64,000 bases of DNA. Source: Dirinaria sp. TL-2023a (Eukaryota). The notes beneath the pieces are model-generated. The model was not told the origin of the DNA. It did no database searches and saw only the letters and a list, made by a program, of their open reading frames with translations. The number at the start of each line of letters is the position of its first letter. The first letter of the stretch is position 1. Below, one piece after another: positions 26,725-44,612 of the stretch. Location: contig JAVEBF010000002.1 of the NCBI GenBank assembly GCA_051941275.1, positions 1-64,000 on the forward strand. Reading direction: 5' to 3'. The position numbers and the translations under genes were made by a program.

Positions 26725-28910
26725 GCTCATGGCTGTTTCGTGAACGTCAATATGTGTGGATTCCTCTCTTTATTTGATTTTCGTCTGTCAATCCTAAAAG
26801 CCTTACGTTCGTTGTTACTGGAGCCTTTCTGTACATGTATTTAGACGATCAAAGGGCTAGGTTTCGGTGCCTTACACAGCCATGATGTGTACTTTTACGA
26901 ATGCACGATATAACGATGGACCCAAGGACCAGAATCTACCCAGTGCCAAACTGTCAAGTCGTGATATCACATATGTTGACTTAGGTTTTCATGGAGGTTT
27001 GAAATTAGACCCAAGATAGGACACTACACTTGGAATGACTTTACAGTGGGGGGACATTGGATTGACTCTCAAAGCTTTGTCTACCACGAGCAAATTCCAA
27101 AATCATGAAAAACATTCAGGATCGCATCAAGAGATACTGCTACGATAACGATGAAAAGGAACTTTTAAGATAGAACTATAAGCATCGGTATATTCCATTA
27201 GAGACCTCGTTCGGGATCCGCCGATGCTTAGTATTGACACGGGGAGATACTATTATCCTGGATCATTAGTAGGAGAGATTACGCAAACAATAATTGTGAG
27301 ATAGAATGTAAGATAGTAGTCAGGGAAGAGGAGATAGCCCGAGGCAGTACTTTTTGGGAGTGACGAACTGTGTGGAGTTTTGATATCGATATCATAGATT
27401 GAACGAATGGATGGGAGCAGCTGACACTCTTTAGACTAATGCAAAATTCAGTTCAGGTGATGAGATACACTAAGATCGTTCTTCGAAGCAATCTTGCAGG
27501 TTCCCCCACATAATCAATAATTCTTGCTTGCTTGACTATCATGTGGGGGATTCCCATTAAGGCAACAATCTGCCCTGAGGTTAGAAGATACACGCCAAGG
27601 CGCTACTGATGTCAAGGCTCTACCTTAGACGACGACCATCAGACCTTACCTAAGATCCGAGCGGGGCGGAAGTGCTCTATCCTGACATCGTAGCTCGATA
27701 ACATGAGGATATCCATCAATACCTACACCGCTTCAAGATGCCTTATCTGACGACGACGTCCATGAATTAGCAGCGTGTTCACAAGATGCCTCGCGCTGTT
27801 CCACTTGAATACCCTGTAGTTCCGATTCCAAGCAAATACCAGCTAATCATGAAATTCTATGGAATTCCATACTAATGGTATTGTCGAAGGAGCTGAATAA
27901 GCCTAATATCTGATATGTTCGCATGTCAGAGATTGATCCCGACATCGATTAACAGAATCGCTGACGATCGAGTCCAGAGGAGTGGCATTAAAGAGTCAGG
28001 TCATTGATACAATCCACTACAAGACAGGGCAGTCTTTTTCCCATATTACGTGCTTTCGCTTACCTACTGTATACGAGGAAAGCGAAGGAAGTTTACTAGG
28101 ACCACCGCTCCGGATATTATTCAAGCTTCACGTATCGTAAGGTATTCTCTCATCTGCAACGACTTCAAGAGTCAGGGTCATTCTCCTTGATTTCATAGAT
28201 AGCAATCTACATGGATAGTTTCATAGGAACTTTGTTCTCACAGCCGTGCACAAATTCAGTGTATCGAGGCTTGCAAACAGCTAAGATGACCAAGACGGGA
28301 TCATTGCGCTTCGCCAAGATACCTATGAAATTCTCACCAAAGCAGACTTAGGCATCGCTTCAAGGCATCGAGGATGGGAGATGCTACGTCATACCTTACC
28401 TTATGACTTCTGAGGTGGCCTTGCGAAGGCGCCGGCGATTTGGATCCCCCATAGTGAGCTCAGCCAATATTTGGGATCAAGAAGATAGCGGCGCGGTCTG
28501 TAGTACCTAAGGTACTGCACATGTAGTTGGAGACTGAGTCATCGATCAAAGCAAACTTCAGTGGACTTGATACTCACCGATTGCCGACAACTGGGTTTCT
28601 ATAGACAGGTCAGGTGAGAAGTCTATGGCTTCTTGGTAGTATTGGTTACGGGGTAGAGTGGAGAATGCTCTATCAGGTGACGCAATGCTCTTTCCCTTGC
28701 CTGGCACCATCCCATGGTGAATTCCCTCAGCTTCCATTCCCATTATCAATCCCGATTGGGCTAGCAGGGTGGGGCGCGTAGCAGTCATCGACCCACTTTC
28801 TTTCCAGTTCCTCTCACTTCCTCTCACTTCCACTTCCTTCTTCACCTCCCCTCCCCTCCCTTTCCCAAACCTCTTCTCCCATCAACCTACACCTATCCTC
28901 CTCCACAGAT

Positions 28911-29656
28911 ATGTCGTACACCAACATGCAGCGCCACAACGGCCGATACAACCCGAAAGCTGCCTATAATTTAAATACAACAGCTCGCAAGGTTTTGAGT
29001 AAAGACAAGGCTATGAGATGGATCAAGCGCCCAGATCGCCCCCTAGCACTTCTCACAAACGCGGTCTTTAGAGAAGTCGTTATGCTGAACCCCAGCACCT
29101 GGATAAATCACCCCAGAACACCTTCAGTACTCAGTGCGAGATCGATCCAACATATACGAGACCGACTTAGCCAGATCGTAAGCGTCCTTCGCGTACTTAT
29201 TCGTACGTATCACTAACCTGGCTATCTAGGCCCTAAGGGGCAGAACGTCGCCCGCAGCACCTCAGAATGTTCAAGATGGGCACGTTACTGAGGACCACGA
29301 AACTGGGGAAAGCTCTAGTCAGAACGTAAGCGTCCTTCGTGTGCTTATTCGTACGTATCACTAATCTAGCTATTTAGGCCCTTAGGGGCAGATCTTCAAC
29401 GGCACATGTAAGAATCGTTTGTGTCCTCCTCGTGTTGCACATCATTAATACAATCTTCTAGTTTCAAAATGATGCAAGCCTTCAAGCCCGCGTGGATAGT
29501 AAGTGTCTTCAGTTTTGTTGAATGACAATTTACTAATGTAGTGACTTAGAGTTTTTTAAGGAGCTGGAGCGTAAGGACCTTTCATGTTCTTAGAAGAAGT
29601 ATCACTAATCTAGGTATCCAGTTGAGCTAGAACAGCCGAAACCACATGAAGGCTAA
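28911..29656 (+). CDS. Orphan protein, ~161 aa, 6 exons (intact paralog, copy 1)
   Basis: Exons 28911-29177, 29230-29325, 29378-29407, 29462-29498, 29550-29570 and 29622-29656 sum to 486 nt with an open frame; all introns are GTAAG...YAG. Homologous to 31144-32452. Confidence 0.65.
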
Positions 29657-31143
29657 TGATACATGGGAAATAGCGCATTTATGACGCTTAACATTAGCAT
29701 TTACATAATTAGCTATAGCTGGCTAGAAAAGAACACTGTTGTGCAGTCTTCTACATACACGTCCACGCCGACGAGGAGAATCGTCTGTAGGTGGTGCCGA
29801 CTACCTTACGCAACCGGTGCTACGTGCAGTATGAGGTGTCAATAATTCTCTAAGGGATACAATCCGCTCGGGGATGAATGAGCCACCATGGGTACCCCCT
29901 AAAAATCGCCCCGTCCATAAAGTATTGATGCATGTTCCACTAATACGACGGATAACTGGCTTTACAGCGGTCAATTTTGTATCGAATCGGCACCCAATTC
30001 AACAACAAGTAGAGGAGCAGGCGACAGAAACGGACCCACCACCACCCCCACCACCCCACTTCAAACCACTACATTCATTGGGAGAACGATCAGTGGCCCA
30101 CGTCTTACCGCCAGCTAGGCGTCAAAGACCAACCCATCGGGTAACGATCCAGGCAGCAAGCGTATACCCATGACCCCGGCCTTCGCAACGCCCTGCTGAG
30201 CATTAGGCGGGCATTGAGGGTCATAAAAAATCGTCAGTCAATAAGGTACAGATAACAGAGGAGGCGCATGTAGACGCGTATGTTACAAGGTCCACCACAG
30301 ACACATTTATCTTACTGGGCGAACTCTATGACATGGTATGATGGGTTTGATAGGGTACCTATGGATGTACGGTACGGGCGCTACGAACAGCGTCACCGTT
30401 TTCCTTCCGGGCAGATGTTTTGTGACGGACCTGGGGGAGAGATTCTCAGACCTCCTTTGGGAGCGAGCAAAGCAGTGTAGGACAAACCTTCATGGGAGCA
30501 CGGCGACAAACAGTCTATATCCTATCATAGGAGGGACGATGATGTAACTATTCCTGTTTCTATTATACAGATCAACGCTAACCGCTGCTGCCAGATTCAA
30601 ATGAAATTAATTGCGATGGTATGGGGCGCTTCCAATCGTAGGCTCAGTGAGTAACTAGTATCAAGCGCCTAACAAAGAGGTGTGTCACAGTGGACGGCTT
30701 GTATTTCGTACACGTACAAGGTAAGACTTTGTACCTTAGAAGAGCCCAGCGACGCTGATAGGTAATGACTCACCTTCTCCTGCCGGGTCGAGGTCTTTGA
30801 GCAGGTGGTATATCTTCTAGCCCTTGGTCTACCTTGAAGTGTGGAGTGGAGCATGCTCTATCAGCCGACCCCTCATTCTTTCAAGGCAGCCGGTTCTCCT
30901 TCCCTTGTCTGACATCATCTGGTGGTGAATTACCTCCCTTTCCCCCCATTTGACAATTCCGATTGGGTTAGTTTTTTTGTGGGGCGCGTAGTACCTTCAT
31001 GATTTGTCACCGACTCACTTCCTGCCCACTTCCTCTCACTGCCTCCCACCTTCTCACCTTTTCTCCCTTCTCACTCACGCTCCACATCTTGTCTCAAACA
31101 ACACCCCTCTCCATTGTAGCGTCTACCAAAACAATTCGTGAAA

Positions 31144-32452
31144 ATGCCACGCAACAATGGGTGAACAGGAGACAGCTCAGAAAACAATGTCGATACAACC
31201 GTGCGCAGACGCGGCAACCAAAGCAAAGCTAGAACATGGCAACGACATCACTACTGCCCTGTGGAGCAACTGAGCTCCGCCGTATTTAGGGAGCTGGTGA
31301 TGCTTGACCCAGCCCCGTACATCAACCATCCGCGGACAAGCTTAGGATTCAACGCTCGATCCAGGCAGCATCTGCTCAGTCGAGTGGCGGTAGGTACCTT
31401 GCATATACTTGCTATTCGGTCACTTATTTCTGCCAACAGCCGCCAACAGCCGCTTCAAGCTCTGGTCAAATCGTAAGCATCCTTCGTGTCTGTATGTGTA
31501 CATGTCACTGATCTAGCTACTTAGACTCTATGGAGCAGTACAACTCGGATCAAAACGTAAGCATCCTTCGTGTCTGTATGTGTACGTACCACTGATCTTG
31601 CTACTTAGGCCCTAAGGGGCAGTAAAGCTGAAGAAGGATCTGGGGAAAGCCCTAGCTCTCACCAAATCGTAAGCATCCTTCGTGTCTGTATGTGTACGTA
31701 TCACTGATCTAGCTACTTAGGCCCTATGGGGCAGATCACCTTTACATGGACCTGGGACTGAAAGCACCGCCGAAAACTCCAACTCTGATCAAAACGTAAG
31801 CATCCTTCGTGTCTGTATGTGTACGTATCACTGATTTAGCTACTTAGGCTCTATGGGGCAGTACAACTCTGATCAAAACGTAAGCATCCGTCGCGTGTGG
31901 ATGTGTACGTATCACTGATCTAGCTACTTAGGCTCTATGGAGCAGTACAACTCTAGACGGACCTGGGGAAAGCTCCAAGTCTGATCGAAACGTAAACATC
32001 CTTCGTGTATGTATGTGTACGTATCACTGATCTAGCTACTCAGGCTCTATGGAGCAGTACAACTCTAGACGGACCTGGGGAAAGCTCCAACTCTGATCAA
32101 ATCGTAAGCATTCTTCGTGTCTGTACGTGTACGTATCACTGATCTAGCTACTTAGGCCCTTCGGGGCAGATCTTCAAGATCTCATGTAAGGACCGATAAT
32201 GTCCTCGTTTTGCAAATCGCTAATCTAGTCTTATAGTCGGAGGATCACGACTTTCAAGCGCGGGTCGATCGTAAGTGTTTTGAGTGTTATTGGATGGCAT
32301 TTTACTGATCTAGTAATTTAGGATTTTTTGAGGAGTTAGATCGCGAGTTAGATCAGAAGGAGGCTTTGGAACGTGAGGAGTTGGAACGTAAGGATCTTAT
32401 ATGTCCATGAATGATATATCGCTGATCTAGCTTTTCAGGCTCTGCAGAGTAG
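31144..32452 (+). pseudogene. Paralog of the orphan gene (copy 2) with expanded micro-exon array, an in-frame TGA and two frameshifting exons
   Basis: AVFRELVMLDPAPYINHPRT aligns with copy-1 AVFREVVMLNPSTWINHPRT; shared terminal exons (QARVD, FF.EL). TGA at 31162 aligns with copy-1 CGA. Two 32-nt exons break the frame. Confidence 0.55.
31473..32155 (+). repeat. Tandem array of 7 near-identical 52-nt intron repeats separated by 32-75 nt variable exons
   Basis: Consensus GTAAGCATCCTTCGTGTCTGTATGTGTACGTATCACTGATCTAGCTACTTAG starting at 31473, 31557, 31669, 31796, 31880, 31992 and 32104. Confidence 0.95.
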
Positions 32453-32850
32453 ATATAGACGGAAAATCGATGAGCATGGACGCGGTTGTGGTTACTAGGC
32501 ATTAGCTTTCATGTGAAATATGATTAGGTGCTTTACGCTGTAGCAGTCATAGGCTATTGAACCCGAAGCTCATCTTTCAAAACATGCAAGTATTCTGGAA
32601 TCAAAGGTGCCTGCGATGTGCCTGTTCGCTCTCAGCAATCTCGCACCAAGGCGTAAATGGCGCCATCAACGAATCACGACACAACGACTTGACATCGGAC
32701 ACCCACAGGGCTATTCGACCCGAACAAACCCCCGATCAAGTCGTCAAGTCGTAAAAGTGGTTTTTCCGTGCGTTGGATGAGAAATGCCTTGAGCAGCAAC
32801 AGCTAACATAACACCACCGTGATAGCAGGTTGTGTCCTGGGTAGCTCAGA

Positions 32851-33306
32851 ATGGACGCCTCATTGCTGCCTGCGCTCGAATCCGTCTTTGCCAAAGTTCT
32901 TCCCGGTGGGCTCTCCGAAAGAGTGATTATTCGTCCCTCTCAAAGTCCTAAAGGGAAAGCGGGACTGCTCCTAAGGTTCAAATTTCCTCCGATACGGCAA
33001 GGCAAAAACGCTGGGATATATTGCGTTGCAAGCATGGATTTGAATGGGATTAGGGAGATGGGTATAAAAGATAATGTCTCAGGGGGGGATCGCTCTAGAC
33101 GAAGCTCAACATTGGAGCAAGGTTGGAGCTCACGCTATGCCGCTGAGTATCATTTCAATAGAGCACAGCGCGAGCTGCTTCGTGGGTGGGCTATGAAGTG
33201 GTATTCTAGGAAAAAGCCGGTAGCCTCATTATTGAAAGCTCATGCTGTCCAAGGTAACTACATCCTACGACTTAGCCAGAATCTCACAGCTATTATGGAG
33301 GACTGA
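32851..33306 (+). CDS. Hypothetical ORF (151 aa), no recognisable motif
   Basis: ATG-initiated ORF only; lies in the gene-poor island. Confidence 0.25.
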   Translation: MDASLLPALESVFAKVLPGGLSERVIIRPSQSPKGKAGLLLRFKFPPIRQGKNAGIYCVASMDLNGIREMGIKDNVSGGDRSRRSSTLEQGWSSRYAAEYHFNRAQRELLRGWAMKWYSRKKPVASLLKAHAVQGNYILRLSQNLTAIMED

Positions 33307-34760
33307 TAGACCTATAAAAGCCTTTTCATCGACATCAAATCCCCCAAGACGCCGGACACCCATGAAGAATGCTGTACCTCAATTTTCGATTACACCGTCT
33401 TCCATTGCAGCCCTCAACACGATGGCTATTTATACTGTGGTGGTCCTCCATACTGTGGCTGTCCATACTGGGATTGTCCTCCGGGTCCTCCGCCCGGCCC
33501 TGTACCTGGAGGAGGCACTTGCATAGGGCCGGCGCCTGGATGTTGCGATTGTACGTCTGGCCGCATACTGCAGATCCATATCACATGAGCAATGACCCGT
33601 CTACCGAAGGAAGTGCCTTGAAGCGGATCGTAGGAGGGCTACGCCAACAAAGCTTTGAGCGTGCAGCTGCGATAGGACAAGCTTACCTCAGGTCTTGCAT
33701 AAAGTGGCAGATGCGGCAGGCAACTTCCTAAGACGCATGTGTTAGCCAAGATTCTTCCCGCAAAGGTGCCATGCACCCAGAGAGACCAACCTTATACTTG
33801 TGCGTCGAGAGCGGGATGACTGGCTGTTGGCAGACTGTTAGATCGCAGACCGCCTTTCTCCGAAGGAGGATCGCTGGCGCATACCAAGAAGCAGACAGTG
33901 AACCATGGCCTGCACATTTGGAATTAGCCCACGCGCTTTGAAAGTTGGACCGATAGCACGCCGTAGCCCCATGTCCTCTCTCAGTGGAGCTCACCATCTT
34001 GTAATACATTGCGCGCTCCAATTACCACCTGATGGAGAAGACCATGATGTTAGCGCTGCTTGTGGCCTGGACGTTTAAAGGGCGCGCCCGGAGCACGAAG
34101 GGGTTGCACTGCAAGGCAAGGAATGGTGCTACTTGCAGTTGTGACATTGCGCGGTCCTAAGGATGGCTTCGTCAGCGTTTGGGAAAACATGTTGCATAGA
34201 TCCCCAGGCTATACTAACACGCCTTGATAACCTTCGAGCTGGTTGGTGAATTCTATCGTCACCAAGCAGCTGTCAGCCCCCCAGGTCTTATGTAAGGTTT
34301 TCCAGAAGCTGCATTTTGCGATAGGAGTTTAACTTACCATGCGTACCAAAAGTTATGCAAAATGCCATGACCTTGAATTTAGATGTGCATTTCGGAGACA
34401 GGAGAGCAATGGCAGGCGGTTGTTGGATGAGGCCGCGCGGAACGGTTACTATGCTACGCCACAGTAGGCTGCGCCTGCAGAAATCAGCCTACCATAGGCC
34501 GATGTTATCCCGGTACACGGTTTAGGCGCCACATCCCATCAACCTTAGCATATGTAGGTTTCCTTCAATGTTATTCATGTTGCCTGCAAACATGTTCTTT
34601 GTGTCCTCCTTTTTTAGGTATCACTGATCTAGCTATCTAGACCCTTAGGGCGAGATAACGCCTGAAATGCCTGACGCAAAGGCAGGATGCCACCCGACAC
34701 ATCATCCACTTCTAGTGTTTAGGCCCGGTCCTTCCGGGCACTTGCCCAACGTGTCGACAG

Positions 34761-35449
34761 ATGCTGAGGCCCGACCACCCTGCTCATGCGGAAGCCCCAG
34801 AGCGAGCGAGGCCCCAAGGCGAGACTGAGATATTAGATGCCCCCACGCCAGGCTATGAGCCGTGGATGTCACCATGTTGTACAAATTCTCATTGGTTTCT
34901 CAATGGTCGATGCCTCCATACAAGGATACGAACCGTGCGTGTTGCCAGTACGGCCAGGTTCCCATTGGCATCTGGGTGAGAGGATGGTCCTGCTCAACGC
35001 ACCGCTCGAGCACTGGACGAACCCATTTCTCAGAGAGCGATTGATACGTAGATAGCTAGTGAATGCGGTCGGCGTACAAGGTACCTGACAAGGACAACGC
35101 ACTGGGACCATCGTATGAACCGTGGGTATCACCCTATGGTATAGGCCCTCATTGGCTTCTCGATGGTCGAATGATCCACTTTGACGCACGTCCGGACGAC
35201 TGGACAAACCTCCGGAGGAGGGAACTCTTGATCCGTCGAGAGCGATTTGAGTACGACCGGCGCAAGCAATTTATGAGAAGTTCGACCCACTATGACCGTA
35301 TTCAAGAAGACTTAGATGGATTCAGAGAACGCCGACTGCCTATCCCTCTGCCTCTAGCAGCACAAGAACCGGAGATGCCTGGTTGGGCGCGGACCCTGGT
35401 GAGTTCCACTCTGCTTTTTGGAAAACAAGAGACTGATCTCCATGCGTAG
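34761..35449 (+). pseudogene. Degenerate orphan coding sequence with three internal peptide repeats in different frames
   Basis: GYEPWMSP..SHWFLNGR (34851), GYEPCVLP..SHWHLGERM..WTN..RERLIRR (34924) and SYEPWVSP..PHWLLDGRM..WTN..RELLIRR (35111), separated by a frameshift and a stop. Confidence 0.5.
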
Positions 35450-35991
35450 GCTCCCTTCTAGAAGGCCTGAGAGAATAGCGCACTTTTAGGTCGTGTCCTA
35501 ACCGAGATCAATTGCTAATTTGCACGCCCTTTTTGGGGAGGATATTCAACTGGCTTCTTTGATGGAGTTTGAGCGTTTGCGCCTTTGGAGGCAATATGTA
35601 ATATTACTTCTCCTTATGCACTCCATATGCCCCGGTAAGAAGGAATGCTCTTACTATTACCATCATCTACAGACGTAGCTGCTTGATTCGTATTTGTGAT
35701 CGCTTCAACGATTTGACGAGTAGACCATGGTTGCTCGTTGGTATACTGAGCCATCAATATTTCATTTATTCGTTTTTGTCTATCAGAGTCCCACTGCGGG
35801 TAAACCACCCTTCCCAATCTTCGTTACGTGTCTGCAGGGAAAGAGGGTGAGTTCCAATTTAATACAGAAGAGGTCAGAGTTATGCTTGCAATCGTAGTAA
35901 ATACCGTCATGTTAATGCAGAGTTAGATGCTTCTCTATTTAATATGTGAGCAATAATTATATTTAATTTTAACACAATTTATCAGAACTCA

Positions 35992-36770: not shown

Positions 36771-38165
36771 AAAAAAAAAAAAATTTTTTTTCCCTTCTTT
36801 GCTTTCTTTTCGTTTCATAGTACCTACTAACTACTACCTACATGCATCGAAACATACATATCTAGAAGGAGATCAGAGTAATGCTCGCAATGATATCTTC
36901 TCATATCATCTCATGTAAACGCCTATGCTAAACTTGAACCATTTCCAGATTTGACGGCAGTGGGATCGATCTTTTGCATTGATACCAGTCAGAACTTACG
37001 TCTCTCAATATCTTTCCATTAGAGCCAAATTTATCCAGCATTCGCATCTTGAAACCAGATCAGCTAGCATTAGGATAAATCATAGAAGATCAATGCTGCC
37101 ATTCGATAAGTAGACTCTATCCAGCTTGCTTGTTGAAGGACAGCTTCATCTGAGTGGTGCCACGCTTTAGTAGATGCTGCATCTCAATCACACTCCGGGT
37201 CAACATCGCTGCCATGTATTATCAATATTTGCCAACTATCCCTCGCAAATTCCGTTGAAATTGCGCTCCAGTCACCTTGTCTATTAAATACTAGGCAGGG
37301 TTTGTGGTCAGATAGATCTACCTATGGCGACCTATCATAGAGCAGAGGCATGTAGGTGACGCGGAGAGCCTCCTGGAATCATCATGGTGTTCAATGATTC
37401 CCAACAATTTAACGTTGAGGTGTTCGTAGGGTGGCAGACAGAATTTTCTGCAATTTATTTTTTTTTTTTTTTTGCCCCGAAAAGGCCTTCTCAAATATCA
37501 ACATGTTTCTGATATTGATTGATTTTGAACAACGCTTTATATAGCTATCAAAAGTGCAAGACAGTTGAGTAACCACGGAGCTACCTTACCTATAGTAAGT
37601 CATGTACATGTAGGTAAGGTAAGGTGCCCTAAACATGTGTAACCCTACCTAGCTCTGAGCTACCTCATGGTACCTAGCGTTGGCTATTGAGGCAGCTAGC
37701 TGTTGACGGAATGCTATAATCGTTGAGTAATAAGTCATGAATACTAGGATTGCTTTACAATACGTAAGTCACGGTGCTGAAAGCTGGTATCCTTCGATTT
37801 GTGTATCACTTTGTTGGTATTTAGGGTTGAATGACTAATCGGTTAAAAATGCCGTGCTGCAAAAGGTCATGCACTGTGATAAGCAACGGGACCTCGTCAG
37901 AAGCATCTACAACCCAGACATCATGTGTCGACTACTCTCAAGCTGTGGTCATCGTGGAGGTTCCGATCTGTCCACACAAAGAATGAGTCAGGCCGAGATC
38001 TACCGAGCTCATGGGTCATCCTCCTCGAACATAGTTTGTCTACTGAGAATCCACCAGGCATAAAAGGTCTTTACAGCGCTCTGGCAACGCTGCAGTGCTG
38101 TGAGCCCGACATGGAGGTCCATTGGTGCAGCTAAAACTTCTAAATCCTTACACATATCGAAGAAC

Positions 38166-41100
38166 ATGGCCTACTTCATACCGTCCTTCATACAGAAGCG
38201 TATCTTACGTTATGTCCTTTCGCATCTTGAGCTCTTGGAAACCGAAGACTTTGATCTTGACAACTTAAATATAGAATGGGGAAAAAGAAGCTCGGTCGAG
38301 CTGCGTGACCTTGGGATACGGATACAGAAGCTTTCTACCCTCCTGCAACTGCCACCTAATTTTCTATTAGTCAAGGCCAAGGTTTCGCTACTACGAATTA
38401 CCGTCCCCGCCGATCTATACAAAAATGGAATCTTGATCGAAGCAGATGGCTTAGAATTAAGGCTGGATGCAAGAGAGAACGAGAAAGGCAAAAGCGACCA
38501 GCAGAGGGTGTCTCCGAAAGACGGTGAAAGACTGGGTCCAGACAAAGGTGAATCGGACCAAACAAGGAGTAACCAATACCATGTACACGATCCCGGAGGG
38601 CATAGCCAACCTTCCACGAGGGAGCATAATGCTGCGGGCAGGAGGTCTTCAGACCACTTGCCGACCGCTATCGACTTAGCAGAATCGTTCTTGGAAGCTG
38701 AGCCGCAGCCAGAAAAAGCTAAGTTGCATAGCGCGCTTGCACAGTCCCAATATGCCGATCAGTCTCAAATCATTGGCGAATATAGTGAAAATGCAGCCGG
38801 TTTGGGTGTAGGGGCTGGTATTTCCTTGCCCGGTTTTGTTGCCGACTTTTTAAAAGGGATTGCAAATCGGGTTCAGCTCATTATACGGAATACAGACGTG
38901 GATCTAGCGGTTGACCTGATGATACCATCTGGAAAGACTGCTGCGGAAAATTCGCAGAAGGCAGAGCAGGTGACGCTGAAACTCAGTGTTGGAGAGGTCG
39001 CACTGGACGGCATTACTGATACACCATCGGCACCAGCTGGTGACAGCAAGGAGTCCGAGAGCCAGTATCGTCAGGGTCCAGAACGATTGCTGCCAAAAGA
39101 GAGCCTCCGGCGCATAACGCTACGAAGACTTAAGGGCATGCTGGTTGCTGAAAGCTCTTTGTTCACATACCTGATCCGTTGTAATGTTCCGCCTTCTCCA
39201 AATACTACGCAATCTAGCGCAATTCGGAGGGCCAACACAGAAAATTCGTCACCGAGCTTGCCCCTAGGCACATCAGCTTTTGGCGCTGAGATATACACAA
39301 GTACGCCCGTGATTCGGGAAGCAACATCCTACCTTCACTCTCCGACCTCTCTCCCAACTTTGCATTTGAACCAGTATCAAAATGAGGATGTGCAGAATCA
39401 ATCTGTTGTAACGTCCACGCGGCCAGACAGTTCTGATCTCGGCTCGAGTCAACCTCAACAGAATGATATGAAAGATTCAATTTATTCGGACTCTCGATCT
39501 AGTCATGATAAGCAAAGTCCTCTCAGTGATATACCTGGATCTTTCTCTCCACCGCACACCTCGAGGAGCAGCCACAGCTTTCCAGAAGAACTGTTCGTAG
39601 ATAATCCAAGCTTTGTGCAGAACGAGACTTCTGGTCAATACGTTGACTCTCCTTTAAATTCATCGAATCAAGCCTTGGAGAGCGGTCAAAACTCCCCACA
39701 GCTTTTGACCCTGGCTCAATCGAAGCTCTTCAGCCACGAGGAAGCTGAAAGTATGTACATGAGCGCCATGACTTACCCTGCATCGGGAGAGCAGAGCGCA
39801 TTTCGCTCATTGAAAAAGATGCCAGGCGACTGGGGAGACTCTGGCTCCGAAGATGAGCAACGTACAGTAGACAAGGAGCAGGCGAAGATGGATGCAACCG
39901 GCGAATTAGCATCTACGGAAAATCCCGGTAGCGGTCTAAGGATACGATCTTTGTATTCGGATACTCCAGAGCTTACAGCACCCCAGCGGGCTGACCAGGA
40001 GTCTACTAGGGAAGAGTCAATACAGTCGATATTTGCAAAGCAAGCTGATACCACTGTTACGGCTGCCTCTACATCCTCTCAACAGGCTTCATCAAATAGT
40101 TCCCAAGCCAGTTCCTCGAAATTCGATCGTGGATTGCTGGTTGTGAAGGAAATTTTCGATGTAGACGTCGTCGTCATCGAGCTTTGTGAAGCCATAATCG
40201 CAAATGAAGACAGTGTTCAACTTAGTAAAAGGCACCAACCTCCGTCCGAACAGCATGAGCCAGGCTCAGGATCGGCAAGTACTAGGTACGGACCACGAAG
40301 GTCGGTGAAAGTAGGGGCTGTCACTATCCTAGGTGACCTGGGGCTCACTAAGCTAGCAATTATCACTATCCAGCGATTTGTAGAACTGCTGAAGCCAGCC
40401 TCCCTCGGGCTTGCTAATAAACCGGAGTCGAAAAGGTCGTCCAGCCGGATAATGATTCGCGTCAAGCGATTCTCATGGCGATTTCTTGACCTTGTAAGGG
40501 GACTGAGCACATCGTGCCCTTCGACTTCGTCACCGGACCTTCAACCTGCAGGAAAGCCGGATGATGCTGAGGTACTGCTGAAGGCTGTCATTCTAAATTT
40601 GAAAATAAATCTGGAAAGAGACGGACTGTCATCCTCATCCGTTGTGTCAGTCGGTAAATTCAGCTTTGGATATGCCACTGAAAACGTCATCTCCTTCGAT
40701 TCTGGATTGAAATTGAGGGAGTCTACACGCGACATTCTAGCGCCGATTGATCAAGATATGATATTGAAGATCACAGAATCGCCACATCACAGGCATTGGG
40801 AATTGACGACCTTACCCTTGCACATTAGACTTGACCTACGCCGATTGGATGAAACTTTCAGCTGGTTTGGCGGGTTCAGCAGTATTATCGGTTTAGGAAA
40901 TTCTATGATGTCAACAATCACGGTTGTGGATATCAGCCCAAATCCAAGTCGGCCCGCCAGAAGTGCTCGAGGGGTCCATTTCGAGCACGAACCACTGCAG
41001 AGCCGGCCTCTGGTATCTGAGGTCGATTGCAAACAGAAAATCACCATTAGATTTGGCAGTGTCGTCCTTGATTTTGAGGGTGCTTGCTGCTCCTTCCGAC

Positions 41101-44100
41101 TAGAAAGTACAGCTGTCAAAGTGGTGAGTCGTGAAGAGGGCATCGGGTTGGCAGTCGATCGGCTCAACCTCACTGGGCCAGATCATGGTTCTGACGCCTC
41201 TACTTCCTCGATTAATGCCAAGCTAATAGCGCTACGCGTCGAATACCTAACGACTCCCAAAGACGTTGATTTGGCTCGTTTGCTTGGATTACTCTCTCCT
41301 TCAAAAGATGGATACAAGGAGGAAGATGACGATATACTGCTCGGAACTCTGTTTCGCCAAAGACGCCAAGGTGGTGTTGTCCGTGTCAATGCTGAGAGAG
41401 TTGAGTTTGGGGTCCTTGACATAGAAGATCTCCACTGCTTGCCTGCCCTTGGAGAAGAGATGAAGAAACTATCTACCGTTGCGAAATATCTTCCAGCAGA
41501 CGATCGGCCTGGCATCATGACTATTTTGCTGGTTCGAGAGCTACATGCTCAAGCCAAATTCCTGGAAAACGTTGGTACCTTACAACTTACAGCAAAAAAC
41601 GCCGAGGTGGCTCACATTAGTATTCCAAGTCTAGTTGCTTTGGGCATAGGGAAGCTAAGTGTTACACGGAATTCTTCCGAAGAGCTTCTAGGAGAGGCTG
41701 AAGGCGCTTTTGTTGACAAAGCATCGCCTCCAACGATCATGGCTCGGTACGTTGGCAATGAGTTGGAGCCTACTGTAAAGATACGTCTTTACAGCCTCCG
41801 TGCGGAATATCACGTCTCAACGATTACCTTAATGCTGGGCCTCCATGAAGAGGTGACGCAAGGAAAGTTGGCAAGCTTGGCTTCTTCTATAGCTACCGTA
41901 ACAGGCCAGCAGCGAGCAAGGCGATCACCTCCCCAGCTCTCCGCTCGAGCGTCGGGTAAGAGCGATACCTGCACGGTGGGCTCAAAGACTTTGAAAATAG
42001 ATTTTGCACTCCGAGATGTGATCTTAGGGCTAAATCCACGCAACTCACCTGCACGGGGTCTCCTTGTACTTACTGACGCTCACCTCGTGAGCACATTGCC
42101 AAAAGATGAATTGGTCAGCGCTCGTCTGGAGATCAATAAGGCCTCGCTGTTGGCTATCGATGATGCGAAGAACGTCATAGTGCCCAATTCTCCATCAAAG
42201 CGCGTTTGCTCCAGCGGTCAAGATAGTCAAATGCAACATTTGTTAGACAGAGGCTACGTGTCGTTGAGCTACGTCTCCGCAATTAAAGCGACTTTAGAAG
42301 TCGTCAGATCAGCTCTGGAAAATGGCAAAACGGTCGAGCTTGAATTGCGCGATAATTTACTTGTCATCGAATCATGCGCAGACTCGACACAGACTTTGCA
42401 GGCCATCCTTAACGGGCTGCAGCCGCCCTCTCCATCTAACAAAGAGCCAAGGTTCAGGACAGAAGTCGTACCTGTTGAGGACATGCTTGCTTCATTCTCG
42501 GGGAAACCTTTCGTGGCCCCTGGTCAGGATAACAGCCAAGATGCGAATGTATCTCTTGAACTGGACGACGCCGACATGATGGAAGACGATGTGCCTCAAA
42601 ATCTTGAATTTGTGAGCAGCTTTTACAATCCAGACCCTATTTCTCTGAATGATAGTATTGCACAGAGCATGTTAGAGGGGGATCTCGAAGCCTCGCCAAA
42701 ACCTACAGCAACTCGCAACATTGGAGACAAACCACTGCTCGAGAGCTTTCAAGACCGTTTTGAGGTTGCTCCCAACGAATCAACACTCCACTTTCGCGAT
42801 GATCATTTTGGTAATAATTCCAGTGTTGGAGGAACTGCCCACAGGTGGAATGTCAAGAAGAACACCTACGAATTGACAAATGAGCCTCAGATTCGTGCAA
42901 GCCCGTTGAGGGTTCGCGTCAGAGATGTCCATGTCATTTGGAATTTGTTTGACGGTTATGATTGGCAGAAGACCAGGGATGCTATTAGTCAAGCTGTAGC
43001 AGCTGTCGAAGAAAAAGCCACTGAGCAAAGGTCGAAAAGACATCAGCGCCAATCTTTGGATGCCGAAGAGGAGGAAGAATCCGTAATTGGGGATTTTCTC
43101 TTCAACTCAATATACATCGGCATCCCTACTAACCGCGATCCAAAAGAATTGAGTCGTCAAGTCAACCGTAACATTGACGATCTCGTGAGTGAAACAGAGA
43201 GCTATGCAACGTCTTCAGGGTCGGGATCGCCCAGTCGCCAGAGCCGCGAACATCGCTCCAAAGGCAGGAGGCTCCGACTTCGTCGCAGCAAATACCACAA
43301 GATGACATTTGAGCTTAAAGGCGTTTCAGCGGATATGATGGTGTTCCCTCCTGACTCTGGGGAGACTCAGAGCTCGGTTGACATTCGCGTAAATGATTTT
43401 GAGATATTTGACCATGTGCCGACATCCACTTGGAAGAAGTTCGCAACATACATGCATGATGCAGGCGAGCGTGAAAGCGGTACCGCTATGATCCACCTCG
43501 AGATCTTGAACGTAAAACCCATTCCCACTTTGACTGCATCAGAAATGATCCTCAAGGTACGCGTTCCTTGAATCTTTCATGGGTCTTTAGCTGACTGCTG
43601 AATGTAGGTGAATATACTACCACTCCGGCTTCACGTAGACCAAGACGCGTTAGACTTCATGATGCGGTTCTTTGAGTTTAAGGACGAATCAACACTGGTT
43701 ACGAACTTGAAGACGGAATCTCCCTTTCTTCAGCGAGTCGAAGTACAATCAGTACCGGTGAAACTAGATTTCAAGCCTAAACGTGTTGACTATGCAGGTC
43801 TTCGCTCTGGACATACGACTGAATTTATGAACTTCTTCATCCTCGATCAAGCGGATATGGTACTCCGCCATGTCATCATATACGGCGTCTCTGGATTTGA
43901 CAGGCTGGGGAAAACGCTGAACGATATATGGTCACCGGACGTCAAACGCAATCAGCTTTCTCGTGTCTTAGCCGGGCTTGCACCTGTACGATCGTTGGTA
44001 AATGTCGGTGGCGGGGTCAAAGACCTTGTCGTAGTCCCAATCCGAGAGTACCGGAAAGACGGCAGAGTAGTGAGGAGCTTCCAGAAAGGTGCGCTAGCTT

Positions 44101-44612
44101 TCGCGAAAACTACTACGAGCGAGCTCGCCAAGCTGGGAGCTAAACTTGCCCTCGGTACTCAGACTGTTCTACAAGGCGCCGAAGGGTTCCTGGCTCCGGA
44201 TAATCAGGGACCGGATTTGTCATACGGCTGGGAAGAAGCGGAGTTTGAGGATGAAGACAGAAAGAAAATCAGTCTGTACGCTGACCAGCCGGTAGGTGTG
44301 GTGCAGGGTTTAAGAGGTGGCTACGCGAGTCTGGAGCGAGATTTGCTCATGGCCAAGGATGCCATTGTAGCAATGCCTGGCGAGGTGATGGACAGTGGGT
44401 CAGCCGGCGGTGCAGCTCGAGCCGTGCTTCGAACCGCGCCCACGGTAATCCTAAGACCTGCTATGGGAGTGAGCAAAGCAGTGGGACAAACGCTGATGGG
44501 AGCGACGAACAGTTTAGATCCTGCCAATCGTAGGAGAGCGGATGATGTGAGTGTTCTAGATTCTGCACAGATCAACGCTGACCGTTGCCGCCAGAAATAC
44601 AAGCGGCATTGA
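38166..44612 (+). CDS. ATG2: Autophagy-related protein 2 (lipid transfer protein), 3 exons
   Basis: N-terminal chorein-like [60 protein letters not shown]. Introns at ~43557-43607 and ~44546-44594. Confidence 0.95.

Follow-up and report, generated by a model that had tools for sequence, protein, structure and literature searches.

The window analysed here is a 64-kb stretch of DNA (positions 1 to 64,000 of contig JAVEBF010000002.1), represented by one assembly only, and all window-level searches refer to it. It contains a small gene, here called gene B, that is interrupted by a tandem array of seven near-identical 52-nt repeats with the appearance of spliceosomal introns, set between very short exons. 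A related, intact-looking gene, paralog A, lies upstream of B, and a short relic of the same family lies downstream (Table 1). The window is fungal; the Pfam content of its long open reading frames (ORFs) comprises ATG2, RNB/cyt-4 domains, AMP/adenosine deaminase, a protein kinase, RRMs and DUF155. Our analysis makes it likely that the array is an intron-containing tandem repeat belonging to a small fungal gene family, and that B is a decaying member of that family.

A regular-expression search recovered the seven repeats at the places given in an earlier note on this DNA; together they span 31473-32155 on the forward strand, inside gene B. Six of the seven copies are within three mismatches of the sequence of copy 3, a similarity that produced no match in 100 dinucleotide shuffles, and the copy at 31880 differs from copy 3 at four positions. 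All seven carry the splice signals that had been noted, namely a GTAAG or GTAAA donor, a CACTGAT element and a TAG or CAG acceptor. The branch-point consensus of fungi is CTRAY. Because their donor, branch site, acceptor and length match those of other candidate introns in the window, we read the repeats as spliceosomal introns; they look like ordinary (U2-type) introns of gene B, and we infer that they are spliced. Eight other candidate introns, which would join long ORFs elsewhere in the window, have lengths of 51-95 nt, 51 nt in three cases, and show no relationship in sequence; most of them fall between 51 and 58 nt, as against 52 nt in the array. When left unspliced, the array has stops in all three forward frames, and it contains no stop-to-stop ORF longer than 48 amino acids (aa) on either strand. 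Tandem Repeats Finder (TRF) resolves it into 84-nt (52+32) and 112-nt (52+60) periods, the unit periods overall being 84, 112 and 127 nt, and a repeat search detected a higher-order repeat of 300 nt at an offset of 323 nt with 85% identity. The seven copies are not the whole of the array, which is in fact longer than had been described: a degenerate eighth copy (B0) precedes them, followed by a 33-nt exon. Downstream of the array there are three further 51-nt introns (I8, I9 and I10) with related 3' ends. A search of Rfam with positions 28000-35500 returned no match at E <= 1.

Table 1. Positions of paralog A, gene B and its parts, and the family relic within the window
Feature	Coordinates	Strand	Description
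Paralog A	28911..29656	+	intact 161-codon six-exon model; 2.2 kb upstream of B
B promoter blocks	30896..31049	+	conserved; counterpart upstream of A at 28688-28827 (70% in a 156-nt blastn alignment)
Gene B	31144..32452	+	paralog with the array; modelled from ATG to TAG with the two 32-nt exons left out; colinear with A
B exon 1	31144..31389	+	homologue of the family's conserved N-terminal helical domain
In-frame TGA	31162..31164	+	codon 7 of B; aligned codon of A is CGA (Arg)
B0	31390..31439	+	degenerate 50-nt family intron; GTAGGT donor; CACTTAT replaces CACTGAT
E0	31440..31472	+	33-nt in-frame exon; 3' end matches array-exon 3' ends (unit alignment)
Intron copy 1	31473..31524	+	52 nt
E1	31525..31556	+	32-nt frame-breaking exon, from the 60-nt module by deletion
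Intron copy 2	31557..31608	+	52 nt
E2	31609..31668	+	60-nt module
Intron copy 3	31669..31720	+	same as the consensus of all seven
E3	31721..31795	+	75-nt module
Intron copy 4	31796..31847	+	52 nt
E4	31848..31879	+	second 32-nt frame-breaking exon
Intron copy 5	31880..31931	+	4 private changes, more than in any other copy
E5	31932..31991	+	60-nt module
Intron copy 6	31992..32043	+	GTAAA donor, CAG acceptor
E6	32044..32103	+	60-nt module; 3 differences from E5
Intron copy 7	32104..32155	+	52 nt
3' part of B	32156..32452	+	aligns to A 29297-29571, 73% over 281 nt
E7	32156..32185	+	3' part of B
I8	32186..32236	+	51-nt intron, 3' part of B
E8	32237..32270	+	3' part of B
I9	32271..32321	+	51-nt intron, 3' part of B
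E9	32322..32387	+	3' part of B
I10	32388..32438	+	51-nt intron, 3' part of B
Last exon and TAG	32439..32452	+	3' part of B
Relic	34615..34656	+	42 nt, 3' half of the family intron and exon start, then an immediate stop

The spacers between the seven introns measure 32, 60, 75, 32, 60 and 60 nt, and their start and end motifs, as well as the translations of the four longer modules, agree with the earlier note. That note had also inferred a symmetric exon-plus-intron unit, but the unit is not uniformly symmetric: two of the six spacers are 32 nt long, not multiples of three, and the reading frame is lost at both. When E0 is included, the internal exons of the array are 33, 32, 60, 75, 32, 60 and 60 nt, and the two 32-nt exons lack the symmetry expected of a cassette gene, where exon lengths divisible by three would keep every combination in frame. 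Each of these corresponds to the 60-nt module with the 28 nt between two CAACTCT direct repeats missing. The sequence CTGGGGAAAGC sits within the deleted 28 nt and is common to the module of A and to E2, E5 and E6 of B, so that the long form of the module is the ancestral one. The 60-nt exons differ from one another at 17/60 (E2/E5), 14/60 (E2/E6) and 3/60 (E5/E6) positions, and the two 32-nt exons at 3/32, while the introns have a mean pairwise identity of 92% (1-6 differences per 52 nt). The introns are therefore much more conserved than the old modules E2 and E3, as had been claimed for the exons in general, but not more than the recent duplicates: E5/E6 and E1/E4 match each other as well as, or better than, the introns that flank them.

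Paralog A provides an internal reference for these changes. Its 52-nt introns number only two, at 29178-29229 and 29326-29377, placed around a single 96-nt module, and appears to represent the unexpanded, ancestral state of two introns around one module. A and B share their layout: an N-terminal domain, a 52-nt intron, a variable module, the 52-nt intron once more, a 30-nt exon (25/30 nt identical) and three more short exons, with 3' introns of 51-54 nt that are 71-78% identical between the two. Exon 1 of A (89 aa) aligns with that of B without gaps, with 30/68 identical residues (E 2e-19), and a tblastn search of the window detected no third copy of this domain. The proportion of differing non-synonymous sites in exon 1 (pN) is 0.35, while that of synonymous sites (pS) is 0.87 and saturated; identity at the first, second and third codon positions is 44/68, 42/68 and 22/68. 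The low pN against a saturated pS indicates that these are old paralogs whose domain has been under selection at the protein level. Similarity in DNA is very unevenly distributed between the two genes: exon 1 aligns no better than shuffles (z = 1.6) and the 3' tails cannot be aligned (z = 0), whereas the half with introns and micro-exons scores z = 32.

The distribution of the element within the window is local. Searches with nhmmer over the whole window, using an 88-nt profile of the unit (15 nt of exon, the intron and 21 nt of exon), matched, besides the seven copies, 29171-29247 and 29311-29396 in A (both strongly), the last intron of B and the relic at 34615-34656; there was nothing else below E = 0.03. 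The relic has an nhmmer E of 1.6e-6 and is 86% identical to A over 42 nt by blastn. The check for dispersal that had been proposed for the 52-mer thus comes out, within 64 kb, as A, B and one relic only (nhmmer E<1e-3, with masked blastn in agreement).

Compared with the intact model of A, B carries four lesions that would disable it, as in an unprocessed pseudogene: the TGA that stands for CGA, the two frame-breaking 32-nt exons and the degenerate first intron. The first ATG of the family is missing from B, and the next in-frame ATG after the TGA is at 31300. B0 can be aligned to the array consensus, with gaps, at 47 columns, 32 of which are identical; its removal keeps the frame, and it is without a CTRAY branch motif. 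If all introns are removed, B stops at once and has no open frame from exon 1. Skipping of both 32-nt exons, by contrast, gives an open frame of 218 codons that is colinear with A. Splicing in fungi is intron-defined, and in a 23-species survey, skipped exons make up 3% and retained introns 61% of alternative-splicing events (PMC3925392). Hence, an out-of-frame message would be expected from B by default. This message, the nonsense mutation at codon 7 and the degenerate first intron are the grounds on which we think that B is, somewhat more probably than otherwise, a recently disabled and decaying paralog. The intact remainder of the frame and the conserved promoter blocks suggest that the decay was recent, or that a shortened product may still be made.

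Some observations weigh against this interpretation of B or against the account of its array that we give below. A GCAG acceptor 14 nt downstream would convert each 32-nt exon to an in-frame 18-nt exon, with the same rescue of the frame as skipping, and so the frame breaks may not be fatal. Apart from the TGA and the 32-nt exons, the frame is intact over 218 codons, and B could be expressed from the ATG at 31300 because the rest of its frame is intact and it shares promoter blocks with A. These blocks have a local alignment score of z = 21 relative to 200 dinucleotide shuffles, and are candidates for shared regulatory sites. Lastly, intron positions outside the splice signals are identical between A and B at 79/109 sites (72%), as against 22/68 for the third positions of exon 1 (p = 2e-7). 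At the small 3' exons, third-position identity falls in between (16/28), with no significant difference from the introns (p = 0.17). The simplest account of the likeness of the introns of A and B would be that the whole 3' half was converted between the paralogs, although constraint on the introns may also play a part.

Three details of B were recorded in addition. The acceptor end of B0 lies in a direct duplication of ~10 nt at 31430-31453 (…GCCAACAG CCGCCAACAG CCGC…), so that a CAG acceptor may lie at either of two places, 10 nt from each other, and the frame is kept with the first alone. E9 is 66 nt in B and 21 nt in A and contains short tandem duplications (TRF period 15, 1.9 copies, 32366-32394), which extend an acidic, coiled-coil-like tail; this is a second repeat expansion in B, here without an intron. 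The promoter blocks contain an ATTGG motif, which we take to be CCAAT-box-like, and GTGGGGCGCGTAG, while silent sites in the adjacent exon 1 are saturated.

With regard to the origin of the array, the repeated core runs from the end of one exon through the intron and ~14-21 nt into the following exon, and it is the middles of the exons that vary in sequence and length. Nine 88-nt units align without gaps, with a mean column identity of 88% that includes the exon flanks. The proposal of a tandem amplification or homogenisation of an exon-plus-intron unit is supported by the TRF periods, by this alignment and by the colinearity with A. Among the seven introns the relationship is star-like, with copy 3 at the centre: private changes number 2, 2, 1, 4, 3 and 2 in the remaining six (14 in all), and no change is shared. 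Between the copies that are paired by the 323-nt higher-order repeat, the introns show 12/156 differences, compared with 17/60 for E2/E5 (p = 2e-4). Star-like introns next to structured exons are the pattern expected from conversion of a shared core. The two introns of A are 90% alike, yet only 73-85% like those of B, and this closer similarity within a gene points to within-gene homogenisation. Concerted evolution is, in our view, the best explanation for introns that appear more conserved than exons. A literature search on concerted evolution of near-identical tandem introns gave no relevant match among the ten papers listed. Repeat-induced point mutation was rejected as the origin of the private changes in the introns, since C>T and G>A account for only 2 each of the 14, as against 4 for T>C.

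We propose the following course of events. The ancestral gene would have had a helical N-terminal domain, a 52-nt intron, one variable low-complexity module, the same intron again and short 3' exons. In B, the core of exon end, intron and exon start would then have multiplied, by replication slippage, unequal crossing-over or both, to seven near-identical copies and one old, degenerate copy. Gene conversion may have kept the core uniform wherever it could be aligned, halting at the module middles, where it could not. Deletions of 28 nt between CAACTCT repeats would have produced the 32-nt exons. Each 52-nt intron would be removed singly, under intron definition, leaving a message of B that is out of frame; B would thus have been disabled, and the repeat expanded without a demonstrated function.

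Two known systems resemble this course of events closely. In fungi, near-identical introns ascribed to 'same gene duplications' (SGD) were surveyed in 24 species by Collemare, van der Burgt & de Wit (2013; PMC3609843), who counted 82 of them, spread over 11 of the species and never exceeding 16 in any one; these introns have normal length and folding energy, and half of them have duplicated flanking exon sequence. The introns of B are likewise near-identical, confined, within the 64 kb, to one gene, ordinary in length and folding energy and accompanied by duplicated exon sequence. They depart from the typical case as that text presents it in that the intron is also common to the adjacent paralog A, and in their number: where no species has more than 16, a single gene with seven or eight stands at the high end. 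The second system is CNN00420 of Cryptococcus neoformans, in which, according to the sections of Sharpton et al. (2008; PMC2395259) on which we rely, repeats of ~107 nt comprising exon ends and a full-length intron have expanded to give polymorphic new introns. Here, too, the unit consists of exon ends and a full intron (84-127 nt), several identical or near-identical introns are present, and the function of the gene is unknown in both cases. CNN00420 belongs to a basidiomycete yeast, and orthologues and population resequencing, as given in those sections, prove a polymorphic gain, whereas the array described here comes from one assembly. The array differs further from what is described there in having more copies (seven plus one), a linked unexpanded paralog, frame-breaking exons and a nonsense codon. 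By its sequence, the array of B would therefore be a further and rather large case of the known duplication of introns within a gene by repeat expansion, adding to a small catalogue of such cases in fungi. Its value would lie in being internally controlled, with an unexpanded A beside an expanded B showing multiplication of introns without a mobile element, and in a duplication unit and later decay (28-nt deletions, nonsense codon) that are legible directly from the sequence; it also illustrates that introns can appear more conserved than exons when the core they share evolves in concert. No new mechanism is opened by it, unless the near-identical splice sites prove to be used in a regulated fashion.

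It was proposed in the earlier note that the array is possibly a diversity-generating module, in which near-identical splice sites permit combinatorial exon skipping. On this proposal, B would be a working gene for variable disordered proteins, the 32-nt exons would be obligatorily skipped or 'poison' exons, and copy number would shift by unequal crossover. Five of the seven internal array exons are indeed multiples of three (33, 60, 75, 60 and 60 nt), the 218-codon frame without the 32-nt exons is colinear with A, and the promoter blocks of B are conserved. The changes between E5 and E6 are three non-synonymous and none synonymous, and dN/dS (non-synonymous over synonymous substitution rate) for E2/E5 is ~1.6, although these counts are tiny. 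The nearest analogue is found in the micro-exon genes of Schistosoma, which PMC3961193 describes as having exons of 6-36 nt, all multiples of three, that encode secreted proteins with splice variants shown; those genes share with the array the tandem stacking of very short exons and a variation that is proposed to rest on skipping. In contrast to the genes described there, which belong to an exon-defined animal, the exons of the array are 30-75 nt, two of them are asymmetric and the host is a fungus. Combinatorial skipping is contrary to the intron definition and the rarity of skipped exons among fungi seen in the survey cited above, and a diversity-generating role is unsupported in view of the frame-breaking exons, the TGA at codon 7 with loss of the first ATG of the family, or a first intron that lacks a CTRAY motif. 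The intact paralog A has one module only, and the product of B is without a predicted signal peptide and without a known family. We consider a working cassette-exon gene unlikely.

A second alternative is that the conserved core, that is, the intron with ~14 nt of exon start, is under selection at the RNA level, for example as a hairpin after the acceptor that regulates splicing, and that concerted evolution is not the cause of its conservation. Such selection would account for the 72% identity of non-signal intron positions in the face of saturated silent sites in exon 1. Further points in its favour are that the modules agree throughout their first four codons, even at silent sites, and that a 4-bp hairpin at each exon start, GCCC-NNNN-GGGC, contains one compensatory pair (CG in 5, UA in 3 and UG in 1 of the units). 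However, the three UA rows are related by descent, the consensus fold of the nine units is weak (-9.8 kcal/mol, with a covariation term of -0.27), single-sequence folds are no better than shuffles and Rfam gave no match, as stated above. The neighbouring 3' exons, too, are fairly conserved at third positions (16/28), without a significant difference from the introns (p = 0.17), and so the whole 3' half looks younger, as it would after gene conversion. RNA-level selection on the core therefore also strikes us as improbable. The two ideas can be combined in a regulated splicing device made up of the intron and micro-exon half, with introns and hairpin-forming exon starts under selection and the 32-nt units acting as poison or alternative-acceptor micro-exons; we would give this combination a small chance. 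If it were true, the choice of splice sites would set the number of low-complexity modules and whether protein is made at all, and the array would be a fungal counterpart of the cassette-exon stacks of animals, in a lineage thought to be almost wholly intron-defined.

The remaining explanations dispense with the duplication of an ordinary intron within its gene. It is very doubtful that the region only mimics introns, whether as a simple non-coding minisatellite or through misassembly: the 84- and 112-nt tandem periods are typical of a minisatellite, but colinearity with A exon by exon and intron by intron and module lengths that differ by multiples of three (60, 75, 96) speak against this, and the private substitutions of each copy and the differing spacers do not fit a collapsed or duplicated assembly. 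Introner-like elements are described, in the passages of PMC3609843 that concern them, as having hundreds of copies in unrelated genes, about twice the length of regular introns and stable predicted folds; repeated insertion of such a mobile intron is the least credible explanation of all, since, despite multiple near-identical spliceosomal introns with complete, canonical signals as in the introner-like elements of Dothideomycetes and an isolated partial copy 2.2 kb downstream (34615-34656), the 52-nt element has the length of ordinary local introns, no stable fold (z-scores of +0.89, +0.48 and +0.42; minimum free energy of -5.9 kcal/mol, with 166/200 shuffles folding at least equally well) and no copy in unrelated genes of the window, the flanking exon is co-repeated in every copy (15 nt upstream and ~14-21 nt downstream), and the relic also bears the family exon start, which makes it a gene-copy remnant and not an insertion.

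The description of B as an orphan gene is roughly right, as exon 1 of neither A nor B matches a Pfam family up to E = 1, but two distant relatives exist. A search of 1.84 billion representative proteins gave four matches at E <= 1e-3, two of which, of 162 and 133 aa, are colinear relatives; the other two, P0002 and P0003, were set aside by eye as low-complexity repeat proteins. A profile search of a 5.8-billion-protein collection (41-284 aa only) retained the same two relatives alone, P0001 and P0004, from 806 candidates. A metagenome scan with a 27-nt degenerate pattern from the 3' half of the intron had 0 matches, and one with the protein profile had 203 pattern matches, 0 of them confirmed. 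The ESM Atlas returned eukaryotic clusters without names only, with recognition below the usual threshold. Exon 1 of A (28911-29177), modelled with AlphaFold2 from a four-sequence alignment, is confidently predicted to be helical from residue 20, with a mean predicted local distance difference test score (pLDDT) of 78.4 and a pLDDT of at least 90 in 45/89 residues; the model had no fold match in the PDB at E <= 0.001, the best having E = 4.9. A and B are members of a real but small and lineage-restricted fungal gene family. Both P0001 and P0004 end 11-15 residues past a 'VS' that aligns with the GTAAGC donor after exon 1 of A and B. It is possible that these gene models continue into an intron that went unrecognised, and that the micro-exons beyond it are therefore absent from them.

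Two other parts of the window deserve mention. Beside the relic, at 34855-35400 on the forward strand, two alike stretches ~240 nt apart were seen by eye, both translating to the motif '…EPW.SP….HW.L.GR…'; the second runs into an Arg/Glu-rich open frame, and the region may be a small repeat-containing gene. At 43557-43607, a 51-nt candidate intron (GTACGC…GCTGAC…TAG) links the 1835-codon ATG2 ORF (38064-43571) to a 334-codon ORF (43608-44612); this is ordinary gene structure and served as a size reference for the local introns.

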